Shown piece after piece: positions 4,201-61,292 of a DNA stretch of 64,000 bases (positions within the stretch are counted from its first letter, which is position 1; every line of letters starts with the position of its first letter). The translations under genes and the position numbers were made by a program. The DNA lies in contig NW_026861602.1 in assembly GCF_026571515.1 (NCBI RefSeq), positions 248,001-312,000 on the forward strand. Reading direction: 5' to 3'. Under the pieces are notes generated by a model. That model did not search any database. It was not told the origin of the DNA and was given only the letters and a program-made list of their open reading frames with translations. The stretch comes from Ruditapes philippinarum. Taxonomy: Eukaryota.

Positions 4201-7200
4201 TGCGATACATTGCAATTTGCCTAATGGATATATGGGAGAGTACACCCTTACTGTGATACATTGCAAGTTGCCCGATGGATATATGGGAGAATACACTCTT
4301 ACTGCGATACATTGCAATTTGCCTAATGGATATATGGGAGAGTACACCCTTACTGCGATACATTGCAATTTGCCTAATGGATATATGGGAGAGTACACCC
4401 TTACTGTGATACATTGCAAGTTGCCCGATGGATATATGGGAGAATACACCCTTACTGCGATACATTGCAATTTGCCTAATGGATATATGGGAGAGTACAC
4501 CCTTACTGCGATACATTGCAATTTGCCTAATGGATATATGGGAGAGTACACCCTTACTGCGATACATTGCAAGTTGCCCGATGGATATATGGGAGAATAC
4601 ACCCTTACTGCGATACATTGCAATTTGCCTAATGGATATATGGGAGAGTACACCCTAACTGTGATATATTGCAATTTGCCTAATGGATATATGGGAGAGT
4701 ACACCCTAACTGTGATATATTGCAATTTGCCTAATGGATATATGGGAGAATACACCCTAACTGTGATATATTACAAGTTGCCTAATGGATATATGGGAGA
4801 GTACACCCTAACTGTGATATATTGCAAGTTGCCTAATGGATATATGGGAGAATACACCCTAACTGTGATACATAATTTGCAAATTGCCTAATGGATATAA
4901 TGGGAGAAAAGACCATAATAGTGATATATTACAAGCTGTTTTGGGAGAAAATGTATTTTTACTGTGATACATTGCAAGTTTCCTAATGGATATTTTTGTA
5001 TTAGCAAACAAATCCTGATTGCATGTGGAACACCTTTTTAGAGTAAATATGTTCTTAAACATCATATTCAACAACAATGTATACAATGCCTGAAAAAGAA
5101 TTTATTTTTCATATTTAGAAAGGCATTTAGATTTTGAAGAGAATGTTTTATCAGATTTATTTTATTTTATACTTTTTATTTCAGTGAGACTTTGTTGTTT
5201 CTCCATCAAATATTTTTCAAAGGTCTATGTGCAAGACTTGAAAACTGGCCCACATTAGTGTTGGGTGAGTACATTTATGAAAACAAATTTAATTATAATA
5301 CTGAAAGTCTGTAATTTGATAACTGATTTGTGTATAAATATATACACGTCTGCTGTGAAATTATGAAGATATCCTCTAAAAAAGGAAGTTTGCTTTATTA
5401 CAAATTCATTATAAAGATTCTTGACATGTTATATGGCCATATATAAACGCTTGTTTGCAATATAACCCTCATCTAGCAACTCAGGTTATATATACAAACA
5501 GCCATTTATATTGGGCCATATAACCTTTCAAAAATCTTTATAACTAATAATATAAGAGGATACATTAACAGTGTGTCCAAATCACTTTCTAGTTCCACTT
5601 TTTAAGAGATTATGTTGTTTACTAGCCCTTTACCAGTCCTATTGTCACAAAATCTGTGACATATGTGTTGAATGATACAATTTTGACCTTTAAATGACCT
5701 TGACTGTGGAGGTCAAATTATTGAAATTTGCTTAAATTGTCATAACTTTAGTGATAGATTCATACTTTCAAGTCTTAACAACACTTATGACACAACCCTC
5801 TCTGCAGTGGCTCTTGTTTCTTACTTTATGACTTGTATCATTATAGGTGATTTGTTTGACATGTTGTTGCCTATGCTGTGTATATACCAGGAGTATGTTA
5901 GAAACCATCATTACAGTCTACAGGTTCTTGCCGAATACAAACAAAAACCGGAATTTAACAATCTGCTAAAACGTTACGAGGAGAAACCTGCGTGTGAAAC
6001 AAGGACACTAGAGATCTTCCTTACTTATCCTATGCATCAAGTTAGTATACTACATTTGATGTAGCCTCAAATGAGAAATTGTTTTTTGTTGAAGACTCAA
6101 GTGAGAAATTATTTTTTGATGAAGCCTAAAGTTAGAAGTTGTTTTTTTGATGTAGCCTCAATTAAGAAATTGTTTTATGATGTAGCCTCGAGTGAGAAAT
6201 TGTTTGTTTTTATGTAGCCTCGAGTAAAAAATTTTTTTTTGATGTAGACTCAAGTGAGAAATTGTTTTTTGATGTAGCCTCGAGTAAAAAATTGTTTTTT
6301 GATGTAGACTCATGTGAGAAATTGTTTTTTGATGTAGACTCAAGTGAGAAATTGTTTTATGATGTATCCTTGAGTGAGACATTGTTTTTGGATGAAGCCT
6401 AGAGTGAGAAATTGTTTTTTATATAGCCTCTAGTGAGAAATTGTTTTTTGATGTAGCCTAAGTGAGAAATTGTTTTTTTTTATGTAGCTTCAAGTGAGAA
6501 ATTGTTTTAAGATGTAGCCTCGAGTGAGAAATTGTTTTTTTTATGTAGCCTAAAGTAAAAAAAAAAATTTTATTTAGACTGAAGTGAGAAATTGTTTTTT
6601 GATGAAGCCTCAAGTAAAAAATTGTTTTTTGATGTAGACTCAAGTGAGAAATTATTTTTTGATGTTGCCTCAAGTAAGAAGTTGTTTTTTAGCTCACCTG
6701 AGCTTGCTCAGGGTGAGCTTTTAGGATCGGTGAATGTCCGTCGTCCGTCGTCCGTCGTCCGTCCGGCCGTCCACAATTTCTTGTGAACACTCTAGCGGTC
6801 GCATTTTTGCCTCAATCATCATCAAACTTGGTCAGGATGCTTATCTAGTTGAAAGCTCGGATGAGTTCGAACATGGGTCATCTCGGATGAAAAACTAGGT
6901 CACAAGAGCTAAAAATAGAAAAACCTTGTGAACACTCTAGAGGTCACATTTTTGACCCAATCATCATCAAACTTGGTCAGGATGTTTGTCTAGGTGATAG
7001 CTCGGATGAGTTCGAACATGGGTCATCTCGGATGAAAAAGTAGGTCACAGGAGCTATAAATAGAAAAACCTTGTGAACACTCTAGTGGTCACATTTTTGA
7101 ACCAATCATCATCAAACTTGGTCAGAATGCTTGTCTAGTCAATTGCTTGGATGAGTTCGAACATGGGTCATCTCTGATGAAAAACTAGGTCACAGGAACT

Positions 7201-10200
7201 AAAAATAGAAAAACCTTGTGAACACTCTAGTGGTCACATTTTTGACCCAATCATCATCAAACTTTGTCAGGATGCTTGTTTAGATAATAGCTCAGATGAG
7301 TTCGAATATGGGTCATCTCGGATGAAAAACTAGGTCACCGGAGCTATAAATAGAAAAACCTTGTTAACACTTTAGCGGTCACATTTTTGCATCAATCATC
7401 ATCAAACTTGATCAAGATGCTTGTCTAGGTGATAGCTCGGATGAGTTCGAACATGGGTCATCTCGGATGAAAAACTAGGTCACAGGAGCTAAAAATAGAA
7501 AAACCTTGTTAACACTCTAGTGGTCACAATTTTGACTCAATTGTCATCAAACTTGGTCAGGAAACTTGAATAGGTCATTGCTTGGAATAAATCGAACATG
7601 GACATCTCGGATGAAAAACTAGGTCACATGAGCTAAAAATAGAAAAATCTTGTTAACACTCTAGTGGCTACTGTTGTGATCCAAATATTCTGTTAATTGG
7701 TCTGAAAGTTTTTTTTGATGATTTCTAAGTCAAGATCAAACATGGGTCATCTTGGATGAAAAACTAGGTCACACCGCCCAAATATGGAAAAACCTTGTTA
7801 ACATTCTAGTGGTCACATTTTCGACTCGATTATCATCAAACTTGGTCAGGATGCTTGTCTAGGTAATTGCTTGGATTAGTTCGAAATCGCATGTGAAACT
7901 AGGTCACCGGAGCTAAAAATAGAAAAATCTTGTTAACACTCTAGTTGCTACTGTTTTGATCCAAGTATCCTGGAAATTGGTCTGAAAGTTTGTTTTGATG
8001 ATTTCTAGGTCAAGTTTGAATATGTGTCACCTGGGTAAAAAACTAGGTCGCACTGCTCAAATATGGATAATCCTTGTTAACACTGAGTCACATTTTTGAC
8101 TCACCTGTCATGAGACTTGGTCAGAATGCTTGTCTAGGTAATTGTTTGGATGAGTTTGATAATTCAGGTGAGCGATCTAGGGCCATCATGGCCCTCTTGT
8201 TTTATGTAGCCTCGATTGAGAAATTGTTTTTTTTTATGTAGCCTCGAGTAAAAAATTTTTTTTTGATGTAGACTCAAGTGAGAAATTGTTTTTTGATGTA
8301 GCCTTGAGTAAAAAATTGTTTTTTGATGTAGACTCATGAGAGAAATTGTTTTTTGATGTAGACTCAAGTAAGAAATTGTTTTTTGATGTAGCCTCGAGTA
8401 AAAAATTGTTATTGGATGTAGCCTAGAGTGATAAATTGTTTTTTGATGTAGCCTAAATGAGAAATTGTTTTTTTTATGTAGCCTCAAGTGAGAAATTGTT
8501 TTTTGATGTAGCCTCGAGTGAGAAATTGTTTTTTTGATGTAGCCTCGAGTGAAAAATTGTTTTATGATGTAGCCTTGAGTGAGAAATTGTTTTATGATGT
8601 AGCCTCGAGTAAGAAATTGGTTTTTGATGTAGCCTCGAGTGAGTAATTGTTTTTTGATGTAGGCTTGAGTGAGAAATTGTTTTGTGGCGTCATTGATTTG
8701 TCATTACTTTTGGGTTATCCAATATCAAAAAGGTCATTGGTGTATATAAGTGATTGTCTTTTATTTAAGATATGAAAAATAATATTAATATTAGAAATAT
8801 GGATGCATTATTTTCTATAGAAATTCTACAACATTCTCAAAGTTAGAAATGAAACAATTTATTTACATCTTTATATCAAAAATATACAAAATATTAATAA
8901 ACAATTATTAATATTTTAAATCAAACAAAATTGTTCATGCTCTGGGCTTTCTGAAGAGTGCAATTCAAAATGTACAAATAATGGCAAACAGAGTGTTCTG
9001 TGAGTGAAACAGGTAATAGTCCTTGTCTTGTAGGCAGGAATGGGTTTTAAGCCCTAGCTGTTATTTTCCTGAAGTATTTTTCTGAACTACAGTTGAGGCA
9101 ATAGTGTACACTTTTCTTTTTGCATAATTAAAACCAGATTTTAAAACCAGATTTTATGAGGTGAAGTATTGTCTCCATCTATTTTCAGATACCCCGTTAC
9201 ATCATTACATTACATGAACTACTAGCACACACTCCACATGATCACGTGGAGAGAAACAGTCTAGAATATGCTAAAAGTAAACTGGAGGAATTATCTAAGG
9301 TAAGTTGTTGGATTCAAAAAGATACAGGAATATGTCTGAGTCCTGACATGTCAAAAAAACTCAGAGGAATGCGTTTAATGTATTTTAAAAACAAGCTGTA
9401 CATATATAAGATTCTTGAAGTCTTGTGAATATGGTAAAAATTAGATGAAGAAGGCATTAAATTATGAATATGTTATAAGTTAAACTATAAAGTTATCATT
9501 TTATTATTATCACAATTAAACATGAACTTCTAACATCTCAATGTAATTCCTTCGTTGTTATTAAGAATCATTGGCAACTTAAGTATTGTGCTTTTGGCCT
9601 TAGACTTTTGTATTATAGTTGTAGATGGAAATTTGGCCATATTTCACTAGAAATTGTAAGTTTTATTCTGTTCCCAAAAACGTTGACTACCAAATTATTT
9701 TAATATTTCAAATATTTTCAGATTATGCATGACGAGGTGAGTGAAACCGAGAATATACGGAAGAATTTGTCAATCGAGCGTATGATTATAGAAGGTTGCG
9801 ATATTCTCCTGGATGTTAACCAAACTTTTGTTAGACAGGGTACGTATTTTTTTAAGATATTTTTATTTTTTCAAACAGGTAATATTATAGGAACACCCCG
9901 GGCAGATGGAAGGTCTGGCAGGCAGCGCCCAATTTTGTCCGGTACATATCTCCACACATGGAGGGATTTTATTTAAACTACATAGAAATGTTCACCACTA
10001 TGAAAATCCATGTCATGGGCATGAACCAGGTCTCTCTAGGTTAAAGGTCAAGGTCACACATGGAGCTTATTGAAAAATGCTTGTCCAGAGCAAAACTTTT
10101 ACATGCGAAGAGGGTTTTCAATTTACTTGGTACAAATGTTCAACATTGAGAGGTGGAGTGTCTTGCACAAAATTCAGGTCCCTTTGGCTAAGGTCAAGGT

Positions 10201-28200: not shown

Positions 28201-31200
28201 CACGTGGCATTAATGACCCTGGTGATTTATGAATTACTTGTCCCTTTTACCCAAATGACTTATAGCATCACATTGCTTTAATCGCTCTGGTGATTTATGA
28301 ATTCCCTTTGTCTTTTTCCCCCGACATTATATGGTTGTAATCCCTATAGATTTATGACTTACCCTTTTGCCTAAATTATTTATAACATCACATGGCTTTT
28401 ATTTCTTTATAAATTCCACTTGCCCTTTTCACCCAAAGAGTTTATAGTATCACATGATTTTAATCAATCTGGTGAATTCCCTTTTGCCTAAATTACAACA
28501 TCACATGGTTTAAATCACACTGGTTAATTCCCTTTTGCCTAAATTACAATGTCACATGGTTTTAATCACTCTTCTTAATCCCATTTTGCCTAAATTACAA
28601 CATCATATGGTTTTAATCACTCTGCTTAATTCCCTTTTGCCTAAATTACAACATCGTATGGGTTTAATCACTCTGCTTAATTTCCTTTTGCCTAAATTAT
28701 AACATCACATGATGTTAATCACACTGCTTAATTCCCTTTTGCCTAAATTACAACATCATATGGGTTTAATCACTCTGCTTAATTTCCTTTTGCCTAAATT
28801 ACAACATCGTATGGGTTTAATCACTCTGCTTAATTTCCTTTTGCCTAAATTACAACATCGTATGGGTTTAATCACTCTGCTTAATTTCCTTTGGCCTAAA
28901 TTACAACATCGTATGGGTTTAATCACTCTGCTTAATTTCCTTTTGCCTAAATTACAACATCGTATGGGTTTAATCACTCTGCTTAATTTCCTTTTGCCTA
29001 AATTATAACATCACATGATGTTAATCACACTGCTTAATTCCCTTTTGCCTAAATTACAACATCATATGGGTTTAATCACTCTGCTTAATTTCCTTTTGCC
29101 TAAATTACAACATCATATGGGTTAAATCACTCTGCTTAATTCCCTTTTGCCTAAATTACAACATCGTATGGGTTTAATCACTCTGCTTAATTTCCTTTGT
29201 CCTAAATTACAACATCGTATGGGTTTAATCACTCTGCTTAATTTCTTTTTGCCTAAATTATAACATCACATGATGTTAATCACACTGCTTAATCCCCTTT
29301 TGCCTAAATAACAACATCGCATGGGTTTAATCACACTGGTCAATTCCCTTTGGCCTAAATAATAACATTCCATGATTTTTAAATCACACTGGTTAATTCC
29401 CTTTGACCTAAATAATAACATCACATGATTTTTAAATCACACTGGTTAATTCACTTTTCCTTAAATTATAACATCACATGGATTTTATTACTATAGTGAT
29501 TCAAAATTCCCATATTACCTCTAGTATCTAGGGTTATTATGTTTTTTACAGCATCCTGTAGCAATGATGTACTAGTGTATCACATATTTGTCAGAATTAA
29601 GTTATTAAGTCTATCACATATGTGTCAGAATTAAGTTATTAAGTGTTTCACATATGTGTCGGTATTAGGTTATTATGTGTATCATATATGTGTCATTATT
29701 ATGTTATTAAATGTATCACATATGTGTCAGAATAAAGTTATTAAGTGCATAACATATGTGTCAGCATTAAGTTATTAAGTGTTGTTTGTTCCAGGGAGAT
29801 GTCACTAAGTCAAGTTAAAGATTTACATTGCCATTTCACACGGCCTAGGTAGTCTAAAAATAGAAACACTAGCTAGCTGTAGACTTCTTTCTTGTGTGGT
29901 CACCTTAGTTATATACATGTACACTAACTATACATATATAGTGTGGTCTAATTAATAGCTAGTTATCAAGTTAGTGACCACTTCACTCTGCTTTCTACTG
30001 GTCACAAACACACTGGCACATGTGATATTAACTGTATATACTAGTCAGATCACTTTTTTTATGCTCCCCGGAGAGAGAGCATATAGTTGCCACCTTGTCC
30101 GTCTGTCCTTCTGTCTGTCTGTCTTTTGTCTTGTCCGGAGCATAACTTGAAAACCCTTGGAGATATTTGTTTAAACTTCACACGGTGGTAGAGGGCATTG
30201 AGGCAGAGTGCAGTGTCAAAGAACGATAACTCTTTTTTGCCCATTTTTCAATTATCTCCCCTTTAAGAAAATTTTTTTCTGAGACATAACTCTAAAACTA
30301 TAAGAGATATCAACATGAAACTTTGTAGGTAGATAGATAGATCTCAATGGGTAGATGTGCAGTGCACAAGAACGGTAAACTTTGCCTTGCCTAAATTTGG
30401 AGTTATTGCCCTTTGTTCATTTTTACACTTTGAACTTTGTCCGGAACATAACTCTAATATTATAAGAGATATCAACATGAAACTTTGCAGGTAGATAGAT
30501 CTCATTGATTAGAAGTCCAGTGCTCAGAAAAGTAAATCTGCCTTGCCTTATTCAGGAATTATTGCACTTTGAATTTTGTTCAGGGACATAACTCTGAAAC
30601 TACAAGAGGTGTATTTTCCTGTGTAAAAAACCTATTTGGGGAGCATCACCCGGTTCAAACCGGACTCTTGTGTATATAGAAGTTTAATAGTGTTCTTTTA
30701 ACTTGTTTGATTGACGTGATTGTACAGTAGGTTAACCTGTACATAGAAACACCCTGTTTGATTTACGTGATTGTACAGTAGGTAAACCTGTACATAGAAA
30801 CACCCTGTTTGATTGACGTGATTGTACAGTAGGTTAACCTATACATAGAAACACCCTTTGGAAGACAAAGATTTTGGTTGTTGGTCAGAGGTGTTGTTCT
30901 GTACAGGTTAAACTTACTGAGAAGTCTTAGTTTGGGAAAAATTAAAATGGTTGTTGTAAAGAGGTCCTTGCTAGACAGAGGGCAATTCTGTAAAGGTTTC
31001 TATATATCATATATAGATCTATATTTCATACATTGTTGGGAAAATGTTAGAATAGTCTATTTTAAATACAGATTCCTAAGTACTTAATTTTCTGGCTAAA
31101 TGTTTTAATGTTGGTGGGTTTTTTTTCTCATTTTTTGGTGGTCCTGTTCCTTTTTCTTTTTTTTTCAAGATCGATAACTTATTTTTTTCAAGACAACTAA

Positions 31201-34200
31201 AAAACCATTTAAATCGATGGGTGTTTGACAAAATCATAAGATTATTGGTAGAAGTGAAGAAAAGAGAAAAAATTTAATAGTTTTATTGCTCAATATGTGA
31301 ACAACAAAAATACGAAATATATGACAGCAAATTTTATAGGGCAAGTTCCATATCTCTGGTATGTTTGAATCTTAGTTCTGTTAATAAAACATAAATGACA
31401 GGCAAGGTTGTGCTTACTTAAACTACTCTAAAAGCTATACTATAACTGTTTCATATTCATTTTAGGCATTCTATTTCTGAAACAGCTTTTCTTATTCTTT
31501 CTTTCAATCACTTTTCACTTTTTTCTGCTACAATTCAGTTCACAAGAATGTGAAAAGTGATCATACTATATACAGTAAACTCCGCTTATAACGAACTCAT
31601 TGGGACATTCAAAATCTGTTCCTTATATCCGGAGTTCTTTGTAAGCATATAGCGAATTAGTTCCTTGTATCAGAAGTTTTTATAGCGAACAGTTTTACAT
31701 ATAACAAACTAATTGTTTACCATCGTCCTCCATTTAGAACAGCATTTACTTAAGAGAAATAACTCTTTGGTTCGTCATTCTTTTCTCCCTTATATTGATT
31801 CAATAAAGAAAAAAGGAATAATTGCAATGTTGTTTCTTTTAATATAATTTTTATGTATAAATATATCTATAAGATAATTATATGATATGTACCATATATG
31901 CAATATTGTTATTTATCAACGATACAGTATCATGCACAAAAATAATCATTTTGCTTTGAAGAAGTCGCTAATTTTAGTTTGGGAATGTTTACAACTCTTC
32001 AGGTTAAATCCAATATCCAATAAACTTTTAAAAATTGTTTCTTCAACATGTGCATTAGACTCGAAGTATGATCTAATCTTGTGCAAACAATCAATAGCTT
32101 CATTTTTTTGACACAACCGGAAGATCATCTAAATAGATTTTGTCTTCGGAAGATTGACTGTCATCGTCATTATTTGTTCTCAATATATATCCGGCCAAGT
32201 TTGAATCTGTGCCGATGAAAACGAAAGAAGAAAATGCGTGATCTGTTAACGGATAGCCGATATTCTGGAGTTCGTTATAAAAGTGTAATTTTCTGTACTT
32301 TTTATGGCATTGGGACTAAAAAATTAGTTCCTTATAAGCGATAATTCCTTATAACCGTGTTCGCTGTAACCGTAATTTTTTACATTAAATAAAGAAGGGC
32401 AAAATTCGGGCCAAAATATTTTGTTCCTTATAACCGGAATTTCGCTATAACCGTGTTCGCTATATGTGAAGTTTACTGTATAGAACTAGAATGTACATGT
32501 CTCTGTATTTTGCAGTTTGATAAATCTATATCATCATATATATACATATATTTACTTTACATATATTTTCACTTCTTTGTAATATATTGTAGTTTATCTC
32601 ATATCTGACTAACTACTGGTGGATGGTCTAGATTAGCATTGTGATTCATTTAATACATGTATAGTCCAATTTTATAGACCTGTCAATTATGCATACATTA
32701 TAATTATGAACATATTATTTGAATATTATATCCAATTTGGGTAGTTTTCATCTATATTCTTAGAATTAACTTATTGACTAGGTTTTCAATGAGAACTGGT
32801 TATTGTAATGCCGACGTCTGCGGGCGCGCATCAACTTTTGGTTTCCGCTCAATAACTTGAGTTTGCTGTGGCATATTGACACCAAACTTGATGTATGGGT
32901 AGCTTATATTAAGAGACAGCTTGGGATTGCTACCCAGGTGTCCTTGATCAAGGTCAAGGTCACTGTTACTTAAAATAGAAATTCAGTTTCTGCTCAATAA
33001 TTTGTGTTTCCTTTGGCCTATTGACACCAAACTTGGTCTGTAAGTAGCTTATATCAAGAGGCAGCTTGGGATTGCTGCCCAGGTGTATGTGATCAAGCTC
33101 AAGGTCATTGTTACTAAAAAGGATATTCAGTTTCTGCTCAATAACTTGTGTTTACTTGACCTATTTACACCAAACTTGGTGTATGGATAGCTTATATCAA
33201 GAGGCTACTGGGGATAACTACCCAGGTGACTATGATTCAGGTCAAGGTCACTTAATTGCTAAAAATAATTCAGTTTTTGCTTAATAACTTGAGTTAGTTG
33301 TGACCTATTGACAGCAAATTTGGTGTGTGGGTAGCTTATATCAGGATGCAACTTGGGATTGCTACCCAGATGTCTGTGATCAAGGTCAATGTCAATGTTG
33401 CTAAAAATAGAAATTCAGTCTCTGCATAATAACTTGAGTTTGCTTAGACCTATTGACACCAAATTTAGTATGTGGGTAGCTTATATCAAGAGGCAACTTG
33501 GGATTGCTACCCAGGTGTCTGTGAACAAGGTCAAGGTCACTGTTGCTTAAAAAAGAAATTCAGTTTCACGTTATAACTTGATGTTGCTTCACCAAACTTG
33601 CTGTGTGGCAGCTTTTGACTGCCACTTAGATATATGTGAGCAAGGTCAAGGTCATTTGCTTACAATAGAATTTTCAGCTTCCACTCATTAACTTCAGCGC
33701 AATTTGACCTATTGATTGCTGTCACATCAAAACTTGGTCGTTGAAAACCTGGTTTTCGTCGCATTGCGGCGCTTCTTGTCAACTGTCATACTTTAAGTTC
33801 AGATCTTCTAGCTACAGTTAACAAATGGTCACATACCGTTAGTGACAGTAGCTCAGTAGAGAGGCAATGTGGCCATACAAAATGAAGGTTCTTGATTCAA
33901 GTCTGAATCTGCTGGTATGAATTTTCTTTGGTTTATATGTTTTATATGTTTCAAATCACAAAGAGATTTGCTTATACATTGTTATCAGAAATCCATGCAG
34001 TAATAAGATGCAACATCTTACCACTAAACATTATTGCAAGAGTTCTCTTACAAAAGGTCTTAAACTAAAAAAAATATACTGATCTGTTTGAATAAAATAC
34101 CAAAGCATAATACATTGTATACCCCAAAAATATCAAACATAATTTCAGCGTGATAGCTACATAGCTAAAACACTTGTTTGTAGTGCTATATAAGAAATGC

Positions 34201-37200
34201 ATGTAAGGCTCTAAATGGCCCCAGTCTTAGGAAAAGTTGTTTTACAATAACACACTTTATCTATGTTAAAACACTTTAAAAAAAAATTAACACTGGCTAA
34301 AGTTATTCCATATACGTGTATCTTAATGCTGGCTAAAGTTATTCCATATATCTTAACGCTGGCTAAAGTTATTCCATATATCTTTAGGTTGGCCAAAGTT
34401 ATTCCATATATCTTAACGCTGGCTAAAGTTATACCATATATCTTAACACTGGCTGAAGTTATTCCATATATCTAACTGCTGGCTAAAGTTATTCCATATA
34501 TCTTAACGCTGGCTGAAGTTATTCCATATATCTTAATGCTGGCTGAAGTTATTCCATATATCTTAACACTGGCTGAAGTTATTCCATATATCTTAACACT
34601 GGCTGAAGTTATTCCATATATCTTAACGCTGGCTGAAGTTATTCCATATATCTAACTGCTGGTTAAAGTTATTCCATATATCTTAACGCTGGCTGAAGTT
34701 ATTCCATATATCTAACTGCTGGCTGAAGTTATTCCATATATCTTAACGCTGGCTGAAGTTATTCCATATATCTTAACACTGGCTGAAGTTATTCCATATA
34801 TCTTAACGCTGGCTGAAGTTATTCCATATATCTTATAGAGACTCCTTTTTAGAGTGTGAGAAAAAATTATACAGCCTGTCTGAAACCCAGAATGCTCGGA
34901 GAACTGTGTGGCAGTTTTGCTGACAAGCTGAGACTGTCTGGCACTTAAACATTTTCTACCAAATTAGTAAACATTTTTTATATTTTTTTACCAAAACATA
35001 TATTATGTATACTGACCAAGTACCATAACTAATTTTGTTGATAAAACTGAACGAGACATTGTAGTAACTGTCTTATAACTGATGACTATAAACAGAAGTA
35101 ATCGGTTGACTCATATAATCCCTGGCCTCATCTTTATACAATGTATATATCATCTAATATAAGTTGAAACTAAAAGAGTACACGTATTTCACTTCTGATT
35201 AAGTTTTTGTTTTACAGATCTCAGAATAATTTTAGTTAAATATATGCGTTAATGACAAATGATAGCATGGTTTGTTTTTTGTTACATTCAAATGCATGAG
35301 TTTTATGCAAATTGAATGAATGAATTTATTTATTTAAGTTGCTAATTATTAGCTTTTACTTATGCGGAGTTGCTATGCAGGTTCTCTGTCAGTTAATCTA
35401 AGTTAATGTCGAGTCAGCATTTTTAGCTCACCTGAGCACAACATGCTCACAGTGAGCTATTGTGATGGCCATGTGTCCATTGTCATATGGAGTGGGTTTT
35501 GTGTCGTATATGGTTTTGTTAAACAGCATATCCTTTGAAACAGATTGTTGGAATTAAATTGACCAAACTTCTCAGGAATGATCATTAAATGGTTGTCCCT
35601 TGTCAAAGTTAACTTAAATGGTGTTGGTTGACTGCATAAATAGGTCACAGGGCCAAAAAAAGGGGTGTTTCAAAAATTCAAATTTGAAACTTTCTTGTCT
35701 GATAATACAAGGCAGAATGTAACTATATAACATTATTTAGAGGTTCTCTACCGAAGTTGCTTAAATTCAACCCTGCTTAGCCGTCATGGGTTCTTTGAAA
35801 AATCTTCTTCTTTAAAATCCTCGAGGCTTAAGACCTAAGATATTTGGTAATTGTAACCTTTATAATGATTGTTCAAATAATTGTCCTGGGTTCATAATTG
35901 TTTCCAACTCTTTTGGTCATGGGTTTTGCCTTTTATGAACTCAAATTTTTGTGGTAAGCATTATTATTAGCTTACAGCTTTTGACACCTGGAACTTTTTT
36001 CTGAGTTCTGCCTCAAATCTCTTTAAAACTTTAAAAACTTTAATTGGTCAGTGTACATTCTATGAGAGTTTCAGACCAATCAAATACCTGAGATCTAAGT
36101 TGAGCTTAGAGATTACATTTATAACCTCTGACCCACTACCATTCTGTCCTCAAGTGTTCGACTTTGGGCTAGCCCCCTTGTTTGGTCATGACATACCAGT
36201 ACTGGTTTCAAGGAATTATTCAAACAAGATCTATTTATCACTATCCAGATAAAATAAATGTATGTTTTGACTAAAAACTAAATCAAATATATTCTCAAAT
36301 TCTGTTGTTTTTTATGCTTCTTGAGAAAAAAGTTGTTAAATTAGCATATGACTATATCATAAATCCCTTTATAGCTATAAGTTATTAATGAACAATTTAC
36401 CATTCTCTTACCATTTCTAAATCTTCAAATCAAGTTCTTAAAGATAAAAGAAAAATAAAAATCTTCTGATAGAATTTATATTCTATTTCTATTATATCAC
36501 TTTTGAATCTGGTTACAGGTAAAAACAGGCTAAATTATCAAGAGATTATGATGTAAACTAAGTAACATAATTAGAGTTAACAATGAATTAGTTGTCATGA
36601 ATTACGGATTTTATTATTTCAGGTCGAGTTCATCAGCAGCTACGGCCGCGTTTGCTGCTGCGACAGCTGGATCAGGAGTTTACTCCCCTGATCAGTCCTC
36701 GGCTAGAGTGCAGAGGTTTCTCAGTGCTGGCACTGGTAATATTTCATTTCCCTATCTGTTCTTGATAATATTTTGTTTCCCTTTCTATTCTTGATAATAT
36801 TTCATTTCCCTATCACTTCTTGATAATATTTCATTTCCCTATCTGTTCTTGATAATATTTTGTTTCCCTTTCTATTCTTGATAATATTTCATTTCCCTAT
36901 CACTTCTTGATAATATTTCATTTCCCTATCTATTCTTGATAATATTTCATTTCCTTATCTATTCTTGATAATATTTCATTTCCCTATCTATTCTTGATAA
37001 TATTTCATTTCCCTATCTATTCTTGATAATATTTCATTTCCCTATCTGTTCTTGATAATATTTCATTTCCCTATCTATTCTTGATAAAATGTCATTTCCC
37101 TTTCTGATCTTGATAATATTTCTTTTCCCTATCTATTATTGATAATTTTTCATTTCCCTATTTGTTCTTGATAATTTGTCATTTCCCTATCTGTTCTTGA

Positions 37201-40200
37201 TAACCAGTGATTTTTTTGCTGTATTTTACAGCCGAAAAAAGGCTGTTTCCCATAGCCCAAAATAGGTATATTTTCCCCTAAAATTGCTAATATTTTCCCC
37301 TAAAATGCCTCGTGCTCTTCCTTACCAGAACCATGGAAAGCTATCTCTATAGATAGCCTCTGCTATGTACCATGCATGTTAAATTGAATTGATATTAATT
37401 TTTTTTTTATAAAACTAAATTGTGTGGGTAAATTCCATTTTCAGTTGATGAAATTTGATTTCAGGTATTCCCCCTTTTCTTATTTATTGCACTATATTTT
37501 CCCCTTCAGAAAGCCACAGGTTGTTTTGAAAATTGGGAAAAAAATCACTGATAACATTTCTTTTCCCTATCTATTCTTGGTCATATGTCATTTCCCTATC
37601 TGTTCTTGATAATATTTTGTTTCCCTTTCTATTCTTGATAATATTTCATTTCCCTATCACTTCTTGATAATATTTTATTTTCCTATATCTTTTCTTGATA
37701 ATATTTCATTTCTCTATCTATTCTTGATAATATTTCATTTCCCTATCTATTCTTGATAATATTTCATTTCCCTATCTATTCTTGATAATATTTCATTTCC
37801 CTATCTATTCTTGATAATATTTCATTTCCCTATCTATTCTTGATAATAATTAATTTCCCTATCTGTTCTTGATAATATTTCATTTCCTTATCTATTCTTG
37901 ATAATATTTCATTTCCCTATCTGTCCTTGATAATGTTTCATTTCCCTATCTGTTCTTGATAATATTTCAGTTCCCTATCTGTTCTTGATCATATTTCATT
38001 TCCCTATCTATTCTTGATAATATTTCATTTCTGTATCTATTCTTGATAATATTTCATTTCCCTATTGGTTCTAGATATTTTATTGCCTAATCTGTTCTGT
38101 ATTTTATTGTTCTTTAAAATCTTTATAATTATATTTCATTTTCCTTTCTTAAAATGTAAAGTTTTTGTCATGCGCCCCATGTCAGAAATTTGGTTAACCT
38201 GCTTTTAAAGTAAATTTTTCAAAAAACAGTCAAAAGATGTTATAATCAAACATTGATCAGAAGTGAAATGGAAACATTAGGGAAAAAAAGTCTTATTGTA
38301 TAAAATAGATAGAGGATATTCATATACAGAATTTATTTTCATCGAGTAATGAAAATAAATATTTTATAAGTGGTGGTGGCCACAAGTGAAATATGATAAT
38401 TTTCATATTACAAAATGAAAATAAATCCTATATACATAGAAAAACTTTTCTGTTCATTACATACTTTTTTCTCTTTTTAAACATTACAATTTGGAAGACT
38501 TCCCCTAAAATTTTATGTATTGGCTGAATTTAGAAAATATATTGCACTTCAGTGAAAAATAATTTTTTACAGTGAAAATACGGAAAATTGAAATATGCAT
38601 TTTATTTCATCAATATTTCATTATTACAAGTATATAATAAAATTATTGTTATGTAAACCATTATTTTGTTATATTAATCAGGTGCTACAGACTCGAGATT
38701 ATTAAAGAAGAGAGAGTCAGTAATAAGTACAGCAGCAACTATGAGAGTTCTTAACATAATTAAACACTGGGTCTCCAAACATTCCCAGGTATTGTTATAT
38801 TTTTTTATGTAGGTTTGTTTAAATGACTCCTAGTTTTTAGGGTAGTAGATTAAATGTCAAAATGACCTTCATCAGAAAGGCTGGCCTACAGTCTTTAGTT
38901 TTGTGTAAATGTTTCAGACTTACTGCGAACCCTCATGGGTGAATCACCAATGGTCATGATATTTCAGTATTTTTATTTAGTATTTTAGGATTTTGACTGT
39001 GTAACAATACATTTATGATGTTTTAGAATTTTAATCATGAAACAATAAATTGACAATGATATTTTAGGATTCTGTGTGTATAACAATACTTTGATTACAT
39101 TGACTATGGTATTTTAGGATTTTACTGTGTGACAATAAATTGACAATGGTATTTTTCAAATTTGACTTCATTACAATACATAAACAATGATATTTTAGGA
39201 TTTTGACTGTGTAACAATATATTTACATGATATTTTAGGATTTTGACTGTGTAACAATACATGCACTATGATAATTTAGGGTTTTGACTGTGTAACAATA
39301 CATGCACTATGATATTTTAGGGTTTTGACTGTGTAACAATACATTCACTATGATATTTTAGGGTTTTGACTGTGTAACAATACATTCACTATGATATTTT
39401 AGGATTTTGACTGTGTAACAATACATTCACTATGATATTTTAGGATTTTGACTATGTAACAAGACATTAACAATGATATTTTAGGATGTTGACTGTGTAA
39501 CAATACATGCACTATGATATTTTAGGATTTTGACTGTGTCATGATATTTTAGGATTTTGACTGTGACAATGAGCTGAAGGTATCTGTGATAGATTTTCTG
39601 GAGGAGATGGTATGTAATACAAATCTGTTACCAGCTGAACACAAGGCTGCGGCTTCAATACTGAGGACTCTTACCAAGGAAACAACAGAACCTAAAATAG
39701 ATCTCACAAAACTTCTTGCTCACCCAGAGGTAATTAGTTCATTCTTTTCTTCAGGATAATAAATAGCGGCAGCTTACCTTTAAATAATAAATCTCACAAA
39801 ATTTTCTTGCTCACCCATAAGTAGTATGCTTTTTTTCATCAGGATATTATTTAGGGGCAGCTTATCTTTCAATAATAAATCTTACAAAATTTCTTGCTCA
39901 AGCAGAGGTAATATGTAGTATGTTCATATTTCCTCAGACAGCATACCTTTCAGTTAATAATAATTAAATTTCACAAAACTTACTTGCTCGCCAAGATGTT
40001 ATAATTATGCTCACTTTCAATTTTTAATACTGATATAATTGATTGCTTTAAAAAGATAAAGTATGTCTTATTCATTAATATAATTATATTTTAGACATCT
40101 TCAAAGGACACATTTGATAGTTTATCAGCGTTAGACATATCTGAACAGTTGACATTCCTTGATCATCAAATATTTACATCTATCAGGAGCGAGTATGTCA

Positions 40201-47692: not shown

Positions 47693-49941
47693 TTATGCTC
47701 CCCAAAGGGAGAGCATATACATGTAGTCGCCACCTTGTCCGTCCGTCCGTCCGTCCGTTGTCTTGTTCGACCCATAACTTAAAAAACCTTGGAGATTATT
47801 ATGCCCCCATTTCGAAGAAAAGGGGGTATATTGCTTTGCACTTGTCGGTCCGTCGGTCCGTTGGTCCGTCGGTCCGTAGACCAAATGGTTTCCGAGTGAT
47901 AACTAAAGAACCCTTAGGCCTAGGAACTTCAAACTTGGTATGGTGATTGGTCATGACCAGTAGATGACCCCTATTGATTTTGGGGTCAAGGGGTCAAAGG
48001 TCAAGGTCACATTGACCTTGTAAGCAAAAACGGTTTCCGATCAATAACTAAAGAACCTCAAGGCCTAGGAACTTCAAACTTGGTATGGTGATTGGTCATG
48101 ATCAGTAGATGACCCCTATTGATTTTGGGGTCAAGGGGTCAAAGGTCAAGGTCACATTGACCTTGTAAGCAAAAACGGTTTCCGATCAATAACTAAAGAA
48201 CCTTAAGGCCTAGGAACTTCAAACTTGGTATGGTGATTGGTCATGATCAGTAGATGACCCCTATTGATTTTGGGGTCAATGGGTCAAAGGTCAAGGTCAC
48301 ATTGACCTTGTAAGCAAAAACGGTTTCCGATCAATAACTAAAGAACCTAATAGCCTAGGAACTTCAAACTTGGTATGGTGATTGGTCATGATCAGTAGAT
48401 GATCCCTATTGATTTTGGGGTCAAGGGGTCAAAGGTCAAGGCTACATTGACCTTGTAAGCAATAAAGGTTTCCGATCAATAACTAAAGAAGTTTAAGGCC
48501 TAGGAACTTCAAACTTGGTATGGTGATTGGTCATGATCAGTAGATGACCCCTATTGATTTTGGGGTCAAGGGATCAAAGGTCAAGGTCACATTGACTTCT
48601 TGGGTAGAAACGGTTTCTGATCAATAACAAAAGAACCCTTAGGCCTAGGAACTTCAAACTTGGTATGGTGATTGGTCATGACCAGCAGATGACCCCTATT
48701 GATTTTGGGGTTAAGGGGTCAAAGGTCAAGGTCACATTGACTTTGTAGGTAAAAACGGTTTCTAATCAATAACGAAAGAACCCTTAGGCCTAAGGACTTC
48801 AAACTTGGTATGGTGATTGGTCATGGTCAGTAGATGACCCCTATTGATTTTGGGGTCAAGGGGTCAAAGGTCAAGGTCACATTGACCTCTTAGGTAAAAA
48901 CGGTTTCTGATTAATAACTAAAGAACCCTTAGGCCTAGGAACTTCAAACTTGGTATGGTGATTTGTCATGACCAGTAGATGACCCCTATTGATATTGGGG
49001 TTAAAGGGGCAAAGGGCAAGGTCACATTGATCTTTTAGGTAAAAATTCTTTCAAATCAATAACTTTAGAACCCTTTGGCCTAGGAACTTCAAACATGGTA
49101 TGGTGATTGGTCATGACCAGCAGATAACCTATTGATTTTGGGGTCAAGGGGTCAAAGGTCAAGGTCACATTGACCTTGTATGTTAAAACGGTTTCCGATC
49201 ATTTAACTAAAAACACTTAGGCCTAGGAACTTCAAACTTTGTATGATGATTGGTCGTGACCAGCAGATGACCCCTATTGAGTTTTGGGTCAAGGGGTCAA
49301 AGGTTAAGGTCATGACCAGTAGATACTTGATAACCCTTATTAATTGTATGATCACCTGGTCAGAAGTCATGCATAATAACCTTATCACATGACTAATTGG
49401 CTGCTGATAGGGGGCATACATGTTCTACAAACATATCTTGTTTGTTTAAACTTCATACAGTGGTAGAGGGCATTGAGGGGGAGTGCAGTGTCAAAGAACC
49501 ATAACTCTATTTTGCCCAATTTTTTAATTATCTCCCCTTTAAAAAAATCTTGTCCGTGAAATAACTCTAAAACTACAAGAGATATCAACATGAAACTTTG
49601 TAGGAAGATAGATCCCAATGGGTAGATCTGCAGTGCACAAGAACTTGCACTCTGCCTTGCCAAATTTTGTAGTTATTGCCCTTTGTTCATTTTTACATTT
49701 TGAACTTTGTCCGGGACATAACTCGGAAACCATAAGAGGTATCAACAAGAAACTTTGTAGGTTGATAGATTGCATTGATTAGAAGTGCAGTGCAAAGAAT
49801 AGTAACTCTGCCTTGCCTAATTTTGAAATTATTGCACTTTGAACTTTTTCCAGGGACATAACTCTGAAACTACAAGAGGTGTACTTTCCTGTGTCCAAAA
49901 CCTATTCGGGGAGCATCACCCGGCTTAAACCAGGCTCTTGT
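47693..49941 (+). mobile_element. ATGCTCCCC-family HINE carrying a nested second HINE
   Basis: 47693-47797 and 49442-49941 align colinearly with the uninterrupted copy at 30059-30671. Confidence 0.88.
47798..49441 (+). mobile_element. nested HINE (ATGCCCCC family) with about 10 x 145 bp core repeats
   Basis: ATGCCCCC...GGGGGCAT, (GTCG/GTCC)n, aaacttggta at 47931/48076/48221, 3' hairpin atgtt...aacat, then cttgt. Confidence 0.88.
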
Positions 49942-51131: not shown

Positions 51132-52742
51132 AGCTCACCTGTCACAAAGTGACAGGGTGAGCTTTTGTGATCGCTTTTCGTCCGGCGTCCGTCTGTCCGT
51201 CGTCCGTCCGTCGTCCGTCCGTCGTCCGTCCGTCCGTCCGTAAACTTTTGCTTTAAATGACATCTCCTCATAAACCACTGAGCCAATTTCATCCAAACTT
51301 CACAGGAATGTTCCTTTGGTGGTCACCTTTAAAAATTGTTCAAAGAATTTAATTCCATGCAGAACTCTGGTTGCCATAGCAACCGAAAGAAGAATCTTTA
51401 AATATCTTCTTTTAAACAACCCTAAGAGCTAGAGCTTAGATATATGGCATAAAACATCTTCTAGTGAGTGTCTACCAAGTTTGTTCAAATAAAAGCCCTG
51501 GGGTCAAAATTGGCCCCGCCCCAGGGGGTCATTGATTTTCCCTATATGCATATAGTAAAAACTTAAAAAATCTTTTTTTAAAGAACCCAAAGAGCTAGAG
51601 CTAAGATATTTGGCATGAAACATCTTCTAGTGAGTGTCTACCAAGTTTGTTGAAATAAAAGCCCTGGGGTCAAAATTGGCACCGCCCCGGGGGGTCATTG
51701 ATTTTCCCTATATGCATATAGTAAAAACTTATAAAATCTTCTTTTCAAGAACCCAAAGAGCTAGAGCTAAGATATTAAGCATGAAACATCTTCTAATGAG
51801 TGTCTACCAAGTTTGTTCAAATTAAAGCCCTGGGGTCAAAATTGGCCCCGCCCCGGGGGGTCATTGATTTTCCCTATATGCATAGAGTAAAAACTTAAAA
51901 AATCTTCTTTTAAAGAACCATAAGAGCTAGAGCTTAGATATTTGGCATGAAACGTCTTCTAGTGAATGTCTACCAAGTTTGTTCAAATAAAAGCCCCGGG
52001 GTCAAAATTGACCCCGCCCCAGGGGGTCATAGATTTCCCCTATATGCATATAGTAAAAATTTAAAAAATCTTCTTTTAAAGAACCCAAAGAGCTAAAGCT
52101 AAGATATTTAGCATGAAACATCTTCTAATGAGTGTCTACCAAGTTTGGTCAAATAAAAGCCCTGGGGTCAAAATTGGCCCCGCCCCAGGGGGTCATTGAT
52201 TTTCCCTATATGCATATAGTAAAAACTTAAAAAAATCTTCTTTTAAAGAACTCAAAGAGCTAGAGCTAAGATATTTAGCATGAAACATGTTCTAATGGGT
52301 GTCTACCAAGAATGTTCAAATAAAAGCCCTGGGGTCAAAACTGGCCCCGCCCGGGGGGGGGTCATTGATTTTCCTTATATGTGTATAGCAAAAACTTAAA
52401 AATCTTCTTTGAAAAAAACCAAATAGCTAGAGTTTAGATATTAAGCATGAAACATCTTTAAGTAAATATCTACAAAGTTTGTTCAAATATAGCCCAGGGG
52501 TCAAAACTGGCTCTGCCCCAGGGGTGTCATTGTTTTTAACTATATGTGTATAGTAAAAACTTTAAAAATCTTCTTTTAAAAAACCCAATGAGCTAGAACT
52601 TAGCATGAAACATCTTCTTATGGGTGTCTACCAAGTCTGTTCAAATAAACAAATAAAAGCCCTTGGGAAAAAAATTGGCCCGGGGTTGGGGGGGGGGCCT
52701 ATATACAGGTGAGCGACCTCAGGGCCATCATGGCCCTCTTGT
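51132..52742 (+). mobile_element. HINE (AGCTCACCTG family) with 166 bp satellite core (Cg170/BIV160-like length)
   Basis: Same subterminal IR and 3' palindrome as 6691-8200; (GTCC)n; about 8 units (gggtcaaaat at 51501, 51667). Confidence 0.88.
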
Positions 52743-56971: not shown

Positions 56972-58170
56972 ACCCACTCCACTCTACTCTCGCTACCCTA
57001 TCCTACCCTACCCTCTACTCCACTACTCCATTTCATTCCACTTCCACTCCAACTCACACTCGTACTCTGCTCTGTTCACCTCTGCTTTGTTCTGTTCTGC
57101 ATTGCTCTGTTTACCTCTGCTCTGCTTTGTTCACCTCTGCACTGCTCTGTTCACCCCTGCTCTGCTCTGTTCACCTCTGCTCTGCTCTGTTCACCTCTGC
57201 TCTGCTTTGTTCTGCTCTGTTCATCTCTGCTCTGCTCTGTTCACCTCTGCTGTGCTTTGTTCACCTCTGTTGTGCTCTGTTCACCTTTGCTCTGCTCTGT
57301 TTACCTCTGCTCTGCTCTGTTCACCTCTGCTTTGTTCACCTCTGCTGTGCTCTGTTCACCTCTGCTCTGCTCTTTTCACCCCTGTTCTGCTCTGTTCACC
57401 TCTGCTCAACTCTGCTCTGTTCACCTCTGCTGTGCTCTGTTCACCCCTGTTCTGCTCTGTTTATCTCTGCTCTGCTCTGTTCACCTCTGCTTTGTTCACC
57501 TCTGCTCTGCTCTGCTTTGTTCACCTCTGCTCTGTTCTGCTTTGTTCACCTCTGCTCTGTTCTGTTCACCTCTGCTCTGCTCTGCTCTGTTCACCTCTGC
57601 TCTGCTCTGCTTTGTTATCCTCTGCTCTGCTCTGCTTTGTTCACCTCTGCTCTGCTATGCTTTGTTCACCTCTGCTCTGCTCTGTTCGCCTCTGCTCTGC
57701 TCTGCTCTGTTCACCTCTGCTCTGCTCTGCTTTGTTCACCTCTGCTCTGCTATACTTTGTTCACCTCTGCTCTGTTCTGCTTTGTTCACCTCTGCTCTGC
57801 TCTACTCGGCTCTCCTTCATTTGAATTATTCTACTTAATTGCATCTACTGTACTTCATTTTAAAACATATATAACACCATTTACCCTACTCCAACTATAT
57901 TCTATTCACACCTACACTACTGCATCAACTTAATTATTTCCTATTCCACTACATCTTATCTATTTTACACGGTCTACTCTACACTACACAAGCTAATCTT
58001 CTCCATTTTACTCTATTGCATAGACTCTTCTCCATCTTCTCTACAATTTACTCCATTAACTCTACCCCAGATTCTGTACTCCAGCTACTTTATTCTACTT
58101 TTATTTCATTTTCTTTTCCTTGTTGTTTTTTTTCACACTACAGGGTCCTTATTCTGCTCTATTTTGTCGT
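56972..58170. repeat. pentameric pyrimidine-rich microsatellite (CTCTG)n/TTCAC with degenerate CTCTA flanks
   Basis: Core 57064-57802; accounts for three stop-free C/S/A/L-rich ORFs. Confidence 0.95.
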
Positions 58171-60240: not shown

Positions 60241-61292
60241 ATGGCTGAGTTGCATTGTAATTTGAGAGAGAGCTTATTGCAAAATTCGTGATTTATTAGG
60301 TAAATGCACTTCAGAAATAAAATGGATCTAGATTTAGTTTAAGGAGAAAATGCCCTTCCATATCGTAGATGTCATGTGGATGTCAATGTTCAAGGAAGGT
60401 AGAACTAATGTTGACGATGATCCCCGCCCTGGGCAGCTAATTTCTGCTTCCACTGAAAAAGACATCAGCACTGTGAAAGCCATAGTGGATGAAGGTGTAA
60501 GATATACTGTGGAGGAGATAAGTGACATATCAGGCCTTAGTGCGTCATATGTGTTTTCATTCTTGAAAGAAAAGTTCATTAAGGAATTGTGCGTCGCTTG
60601 GATAACTTGTATACAACTTCTGACCAGCGGGTTGAAAAAACAATTATGCCTTATTGACTAGGTTTAAAAATCGAGACCCTAGACGCCTGATAGAGATTGC
60701 CACAGCGGATGAAACATTGCTTTATTTTTTAAGTCCAAAAATAGTCAGTAACAAAATGTGGGTAGGTGAAAACAGCGATCGCCCACTTGTGCTCGACGTA
60801 GCAGGAGCGTTAAAAGAGTTATGTATTCTCTATTTTTGACAACGGTGGAATACTAGTAGTGGCCCATGTCGCTGTGCCGGAGAGGGGTAGTTTCACTGAA
60901 ACATTTTACCGTGACCATGTTCTCACTGCTGTAATTAATCACTACATTACAAATAACCCAAGATCCGGAGTGCGCAGGATCAAATCACTCCATGATATTG
61001 CACCTCGCACCGGGCAGCCTTGGTTCAAGCTTATTAAGAGGAGCAGAGGTTTTGCTACATCCCGCTTATAGCCCTGACCTCCCTCCTTGTGACCTTTGGT
61101 TATATCCATACATCAAATCTTGTCTTTCACGGTCAATTGTTCGAAACCCACAGTGCCTTCGGAAGCGCTCTCTACCAGTGTATAAAAACTATACCCAAAG
61201 AACAGTTCAAAAATGCTTTTTTTAATGGATTAATTATGAGGCTGGAAAAGCGTGTAGTGGTCCATAGTGAATATTTTGATGGACTCTACTAA
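60241..61292 (+). pseudogene. mariner (DD34D-type) transposase pseudogene
   Basis: Fragments in several frames: W..FKEGRTNVDDDPRPG (HTH linker), TADETLLYF, HDIAP, HPAYSPDLPPCDLWLYP, RLEKRVVVHSEYF; multiple frameshifts. Confidence 0.92.

Follow-up and report, generated by a model that had tools for sequence, protein, structure and literature searches.

The intron upstream of one exon of a clam gene holds a tandem array in which the acceptor junction of that exon is repeated many times, all copies preceding the site that yields the annotated protein, and the question is where these copies came from, how they are passed over, and whether they serve the gene. A preliminary description of the locus had proposed two answers: either exon definition or the position of the branch point leaves the copies ignored, or the array is a poison cassette, tunable by copy number, that produces NMD targets or an isoform without the CDC25 domain. 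Both are weighed here within the whole stretch of DNA analysed, 64,000 nt of Ruditapes philippinarum (the window).

Host gene and gene model

A model of 25 exons from 1085 to 45724, with AG and GT ends at every exon, reproduces residues 227-1494 of a named R. philippinarum protein, ras-specific guanine nucleotide-releasing factor 1-like isoform X3 (P0001), with 0 mismatches, and identifies the host gene as RasGRF; the translation of 39553-39729 is 100% identical to P0001 (59/59 residues). P0001 carries PF00169, PF00621, PF22697, PF00618 and PF00617, and has PH, DH, PH, REM and CDC25 on one chain, the arrangement that marks a RasGRF. The RhoGEF, RasGEF_N and RasGEF profiles match exons in the window. 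The exon that follows the array encodes the end of REM and the linker before CDC25, with RasGEF (CDC25) profile matches in later exons, and the intron after it is 365 nt long. Its designation as exon 18, like that of exon 17 before it, is correct in window numbering only; residues 1-226 are encoded upstream of the window.

The use of 39553 as the first base of exon 18 is predicted from the annotated protein model (P0001) and from conservation, the spacing of the W..KH..DF motif across the exon 17/18 junction being constant in 113 of the 122 long proteins scanned and the motif absent in the remaining nine. Comparison with P0001 bears out the earlier claim that only the most distal AG yields the full-length protein, since no other start than 39553 gives the annotated product. 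In Tegillarca granosa, two proteins with adjacent locus tags (P0005 and P0006) each have REM and CDC25; either the gene has been copied in tandem there or the assembly has duplicated it.

Organization of the acceptor copies

By TRF, 38981-39539 is an array of 41-bp units (13.5 copies, 81% matches), and 39514-39565 is a pair of 27-bp units. Used as a probe, the 24 nt that span the working junction recovered 15 copies of the exon-18 acceptor junction at offsets of -585 to -27, four of them identical to it (24/24) and 14 with the AG, and the same 15 were recovered when the AG positions were left out of the scan. Fifty exon edges were scanned, and each of the other 49 has two such copies or fewer at the same threshold. 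In local alignments compared with shuffled intron, only three of the 50 edges reach a z of at least 4 for a copy in the adjacent intron, namely the exon-18 acceptor (10.6), the exon-18 donor (15.9) and the exon-16 donor (6.1). The array of acceptor-junction copies is thus real and far above chance.

The position first given for it was 38975..39570, but its 5' limit reaches back to about 38953. Some 13 upstream units had been counted as keeping the AG, in agreement with 13 of the 14 copies inside that span, but the word intact does not suit the 5' copies, which are degenerate (5' units are 61-90% identical to other copies). In the last unit (Table 1) the A of a branch-point-like YTRAY is at position 39533 (-20), and the core units have YTRAY at -33/-34.

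The copies stand head to tail and span the intron end and the exon start, the splice dinucleotide is found in many units, though not in every one, and a homogeneous core is bordered by divergent units. These are the features of the tandem copies of intron/exon boundaries that were termed 'mirages' in amphioxus (PMC3087553). By structure the array is a splice-junction minisatellite of this kind, and what had been treated as unusual belongs to a class already described in amphioxus and human.

Table 1. Features in and around the exon-18 acceptor array (window positions).
Feature	Position	Strand	Remarks
Preceding coding exon (number 17 in the window), within REM/RasGEF_N domain	38682..38788	+	Donor GT at 38789, phase 0
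Intron holding the acceptor array, 764 nt	38789..39552	+	From the gene model
Most 5' junction copy, degenerate	38953..38967	+	AG at 38966-38967; lies outside the span of the preliminary description
U-rich tract and AG (38987-38988)	38968..38988	+	Best-scoring acceptor of the array; candidate ancestral acceptor
Degenerate 5' units, 38-50 nt	38989..39186	+	One without AG (39157)
Donor-like GT sites 39109 and 39149	within 38989..39186	+	Could close a stop-bearing pseudo-exon of 120 or 160 nt
Homogeneous core, 40-41-nt units	39187..39525	+	AG in all; 83-100% pairwise identity
Last unit, shortened to 27 nt	39526..39552	+	Gives the working acceptor its upstream context
Working acceptor AG	39551..39552	+	Sole AG yielding the annotated protein
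Coding exon 18, 177 nt, phase 0	39553..39729	+	P0001 residues 1180-1238
Donor-side mirage of exon 18, unit of about 88 nt	39696..40010	+	Three downstream copies, GT at 39821, 39908 and 39998

Origin of the repeat unit

The unit joins the end of the intron to the start of the exon, the latter with a 2-nt TG-type expansion, and closes with a 13-nt tail; its main source is the first 20 nt of exon 18. Thirteen decoy junctions were compared: in 11 of them 8-10 of the 13 tail bases agree with exon positions +8..+20, and in the other two 6/13 do; at least nine such matches occur in 0.19% of intronic 13-mers. Bases -12..-9 of the working acceptor are the same as exon +17..+20, a microhomology of 4 nt. 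Slippage at this microhomology would have duplicated a segment running from 8 bases before the junction to about 20 bases into the exon. Another incomplete copy of exon +8..+20 could then have been added to it, bringing the unit to about 41 nt; this unit would have expanded, with homogenisation of the 3' core, leaving the intact exon behind the last copy. Since a duplication of the junction necessarily copies the AG as well, the decoys need no functional explanation. A dispersed element or transposon was rejected as the source, the best match to the unit elsewhere in the window being 25/41 on either strand, and the unit is thus local.

The copy at 38988 is set apart by a U-rich tract upstream, and scores 8.1-10.0 in four PWM windows, compared with 1.5-3.8 for the working acceptor and a median of 7.1-7.6 for real acceptors. 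Set against a leave-one-out median of 7.1 and a second-lowest real site of 0.2, it scores 8.3 and the working acceptor 1.5. The matrices were built from no more than 23-24 of the gene's own sites. It may be the ancestral acceptor, and probably is, in which case the upstream context of the working site would be recycled exon sequence. The degenerate copy at 38967, which has a 5' context like that of the working site, allows another history.

Selection of the last AG

The sequence of the acceptor itself cannot select the last AG, and acceptor strength was rejected as a discriminator, the PWM not favouring the working site. Masking of the copies by RNA structure was also rejected, as 38950-39600 folds worse than 20 of 20 shuffles (z +4.2). 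A search of 38700-40200 for known RNA families gave 0 Rfam matches up to E 1.

The introns on either side of exon 18 both exceed 250 nt (764 and 365 nt), and the exon may therefore be recognised across its length. The last AG would be paired with the donor at 39730, as it alone leads into sequence that is exon-like and richer in purines, and the exon that it gives is the shortest. By 4-mer composition of the 60 nt after the AG, exon-likeness ranges from -0.68 to -0.30 among the 15 copies and reaches -0.04 at the working site, where the intron median is -0.32 and the real-exon median 0.23; the start of the working exon is thus only modestly exon-like, and its place below the real-exon median counts against selection by exon definition. 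There are 2 GAR triplets in the 564 nt of the array and 9 in the 177 nt of exon 18. Paired with 39730, the copies would give exons of 204-762 nt and the working AG gives one of 177 nt, the median internal exon being 118 nt. Reed and Maniatis, in 1986, reportedly found the choice between duplicated 3' sites to be decided by the neighbouring exon sequence. The long flanking introns recall human cases of exon-centric proximity, in which the sites closest across the exon are favoured when flanking introns exceed about 250 nt (PMC9225289), although those data come from human pairs of alternative sites and may not hold for molluscs, and for human 3' sites under exon definition the preference for the upstream site is described as 'significantly reduced', not clearly reversed (PMC9225289). 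The same source cites Reed and Maniatis 1986 for intron-centric proximity.

The branch-point-like motif at -20 may assist the working acceptor. In the gene's other acceptors YTRAY lies at -18..-30 in 7/24 and at -31..-45 in 6/24, so that its position does not discriminate, and the distance of this candidate motif from the AG is suggestive only. Where a decoy was used on rare occasions, a stop would follow and, by the general NMD rule, the transcript would be removed as noise, not as regulation. The first of the two proposals, that the copies are ignored by exon definition or by branch-point position, fits the anatomy of the locus and the precedents from amphioxus and human. As judged from the sequence, the array is probably silent, left behind almost neutrally by the turnover of tandem repeats in a clam intron rich in them, and expanded after a slippage duplication, with the last AG picked by exon definition.

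Comparison with other junction minisatellites

Like the amphioxus mirages (Adh3, BflGb6, BflGb9, TnC and PGBD5), the clam array consists of minisatellite-like tandem copies of a boundary, many but not all of them with AG or GT, with a homogenised core and a divergent edge, and in both systems 5' and 3' boundaries can be copied. Amphioxus units measure 10-160 bp, those of Adh3 10-72 bp (PMC3087553), and the clam acceptor unit 41 bp. There are 3-6 acceptor-side copies in BflGb6, in BflGb9 the 3' exon boundary is copied (PMC3087553), and the mirages of PGBD5 and troponin C (TnC) are similar (PMC3902484). The clam array differs in having a bivalve host, in its 15 acceptor copies as against the 3-6 of BflGb6, and in that both ends of one exon are copied. 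In amphioxus, RT-PCR suggested no interference with splicing, and the globin mirages were proposed to seed new introns (PMC3087553). Silence and length polymorphism were tested in amphioxus, whereas the clam array is known from one genomic sequence.

In human, arrays on the donor side are described in which F7, LMNB2 and PDGF use the authentic site only, while CBS and 6-16 also use the two nearest copies (PMC1557585). The clam array resembles them (the F7 IVS7 37-bp VNTR, CBS, 6-16, LMNB2 and PDGF) in that a splice site is reiterated within a minisatellite and the site next to the intact exon is the one used, exclusively or mainly in the human genes and by prediction in the clam. The F7-type arrays, being on the donor side, have been explained by 5'-to-3' scanning from the exon. 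The clam copies are transcribed before the used site, and first-come scanning would therefore pick the wrong AG. The 25-bp VNTR of ABCA7 intron 18 (12-427 units) is another junction minisatellite whose use gives a premature stop, and its length tracks splicing and expression (PMC5954066). It can serve as a model for a length-dependent effect, with the difference that it is donor-side with a measured effect on splicing and expression, whereas the clam array is acceptor-side and known from sequence alone. No report of a junction minisatellite in a mollusc was found in the literature searched, the coverage of which excludes most subscription journals.

If the clam mirage is silent, the result is a modest one that extends a structure of amphioxus and human to a bivalve. 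It would also provide, in an invertebrate, a clean natural experiment on how a 3' splice site is chosen, since all 14 AG-bearing copies are upstream of the used site, and among the upstream copies four are identical to it over 24 nt and one is stronger. Exon definition could likewise be tested in this mollusc, where a stronger twin upstream is apparently passed over in favour of a weak site. Annotators should be warned that such arrays can attract false junctions. The array would matter more only if leakage scales with allele length, or if mirages are common across bivalves and seed new introns.

Decoy use and regulatory role

Every AG copy leads, in phase 0, to a stop after 4-15 residues, and the stops lie 177-741 nt upstream of the donor junction of exon 18, all of them more than 50 nt before the downstream junction, as in a poison exon. 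The translation reported earlier for the penultimate short unit, DFDCVMIF and a stop, was recovered, with the TAG of the working acceptor (39550-39552) as the stop; that given for a typical unit is exact for one copy (39402), the other copies giving variants of 4-15 residues. AGs situated 27-600 nt upstream of 23 other acceptors were used as controls, and since 583 of these 592 also give a stop or a frameshift, the premature stops carry no information on function and cannot be read as a signal.

Another possible reading is that the array is leaky, an unselected modifier of dosage in which 39525, 39484 or 38988 takes a measurable share of splicing. The working acceptor is weak, and 38988 outscores it and would leave an intron of 200 nt, within the range of intron definition, so that leakage is plausible; this combination counts against a silent array, and four copies are identical to the working junction at 24/24 positions, with all stops placed more than 50 nt before the downstream junction. 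Longer alleles would then lower RasGRF mRNA through NMD or cause exon skipping, as with the ABCA7 VNTR, for which retention of one unit, skipped exons and an expression that falls as the VNTR lengthens are described (PMC5954066), and the use of the two nearest pseudo-sites in CBS and 6-16 (PMC1557585) points the same way. However, intron-like sequence follows every copy, the amphioxus mirages, one of them on the acceptor side, were reported without aberrant mRNA (PMC3087553, PMC3902484), and the clam array is known from one sequence only, so leakage of this kind is considered unlikely, if still worth bearing in mind. A more specific scenario appears distinctly unlikely: that the duplication moved the exon 564 nt from a strong ancestral acceptor at 38988, with which the weak, exon-built site would now compete by intron definition, the length of the array setting RasGRF dosage via NMD.

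That the array is a selected device is highly improbable, whether as a poison cassette (by way of a pseudo-exon at 38989-39108 or by direct use of decoys) or as the source of an isoform that contains DH-PH and lacks CDC25, in either case tuned by copy number. The candidate pseudo-exon of 120 nt has an acceptor score of 8.4, a donor score of 5.8 and a stop at codon 10, and a truncation at the junction would remove the entire CDC25 domain, which starts in the following exons. Pairs of such strength are nevertheless common, as 10 of the 21 strong AGs in the 40,833 bp of intron have such a donor, and stops are the default for intronic AGs. The AG is kept in 14/15 copies. Mean identity over the remaining 23 positions is 0.887, and dinucleotides elsewhere on the intron side persist in 12-15 of 15; the retention of AG is therefore like that of its neighbours, with no selection for or against it seen across the 15 copies, a comparison of low power, and the selected splice signals of a poison exon were not found at that power. 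A search with the sequence flanking the junction gave 141 homologues, and no mollusc protein without PF00617 is present among the 120 of them that were listed, a set in which 90% clusters can hide isoforms and which leaves out the other five members of the P0001 cluster (further annotated isoforms). Three of the 120 do lack the domain, namely a Limulus partial, a Hyposmocoma partial and a Diachasma uncharacterised protein. Of nine short ORFs, eight, which are mollusc-like, continue without a break into the sequence upstream of the exon, and none of the eight has an in-frame junction copy, as judged by eye in one frame, which makes this a weak test. The tunable cassette and the CDC25-less isoform proposed earlier thus find no support, although the occasional leak to the nearest copies in human arrays and the length effect in ABCA7 leave them a small probability. 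An in-frame microexon of 12 nt, closed by a GT within each unit, was also considered and is unlikely, none of those GTs reaching a donor score of 3.

An assembly artefact, from mis-joined or stuttered reads, is barely credible: tandem repeats are hard to assemble, and one published R. philippinarum assembly, which may not be the source of the window, is described as having about 4% heterozygosity and about 25x long reads, but neighbouring units carry variants in common and divergence is graded from 5' to 3' (61-100%), which argues against assembly stutter, there is no N in the window, and the flanking coding sequence is exact.

Donor copies of exon 18 and other tandem arrays

The donor of exon 18 is duplicated as well (Table 1), a feature missed in the preliminary description. 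GT is in register in 3/3 copies, and that at 39908 scores 6.6 compared with 8.8 for the real donor (39730). Within exon 18 itself, a donor-like GT at 39610 scores 8.1, close to that same value, and its use would drop 120 nt in frame.

In the window, 22 merged tandem arrays account for 12,020 bp, compared with 40,833 bp of intron, and five of the 22 lie within 20 bp of an exon edge where 1.44 are expected (p 0.011, one of two thresholds tried); these are at 6055, 20185, 36737, 38981 and 39696, and four of them are at donors. Enrichment of arrays directly overlapping exon edges (0 bp) is not significant (2/22, p 0.25). The R. philippinarum genome is estimated to be 48-61% repetitive (PMC9803972). 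Should mirages prove frequent at the edges of clam exons, splicing variation in bivalves would have in them a widespread and fast-mutating source.

The 29-bp array at 36736-38065 begins at the exon-16 donor, where the real donor has GT; in the 25 copies counted, AT stands at that place, so that the array is anchored at a donor and its copies lack the splice signal. At 6055-8683, one 30-bp array continues on the far side of a 145-bp array (6780-8156), as though an insertion had broken it in two, and holds several high-scoring pseudo-exons. A 51-bp period is common to four otherwise unrelated-looking arrays (2436-3039, 4064-4907, 28459-29492 and 30704-30857). The pyrimidine-rich pentanucleotide satellite at 57065-57813, of about 150 copies, gives rise to spurious long open frames, and the overlapping open frames at 60338-61292, which are in pieces, resemble a decayed mariner/Tc1-type transposase. 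Arrays with units of 145-166 bp occur at 6736-8156, 32841-33567, 47844-49312 and 51178-52649, three of the four preceded by a short GTCC-type microsatellite, and we take them to resemble non-autonomous Helitron-like or satellite-bearing elements of bivalves.
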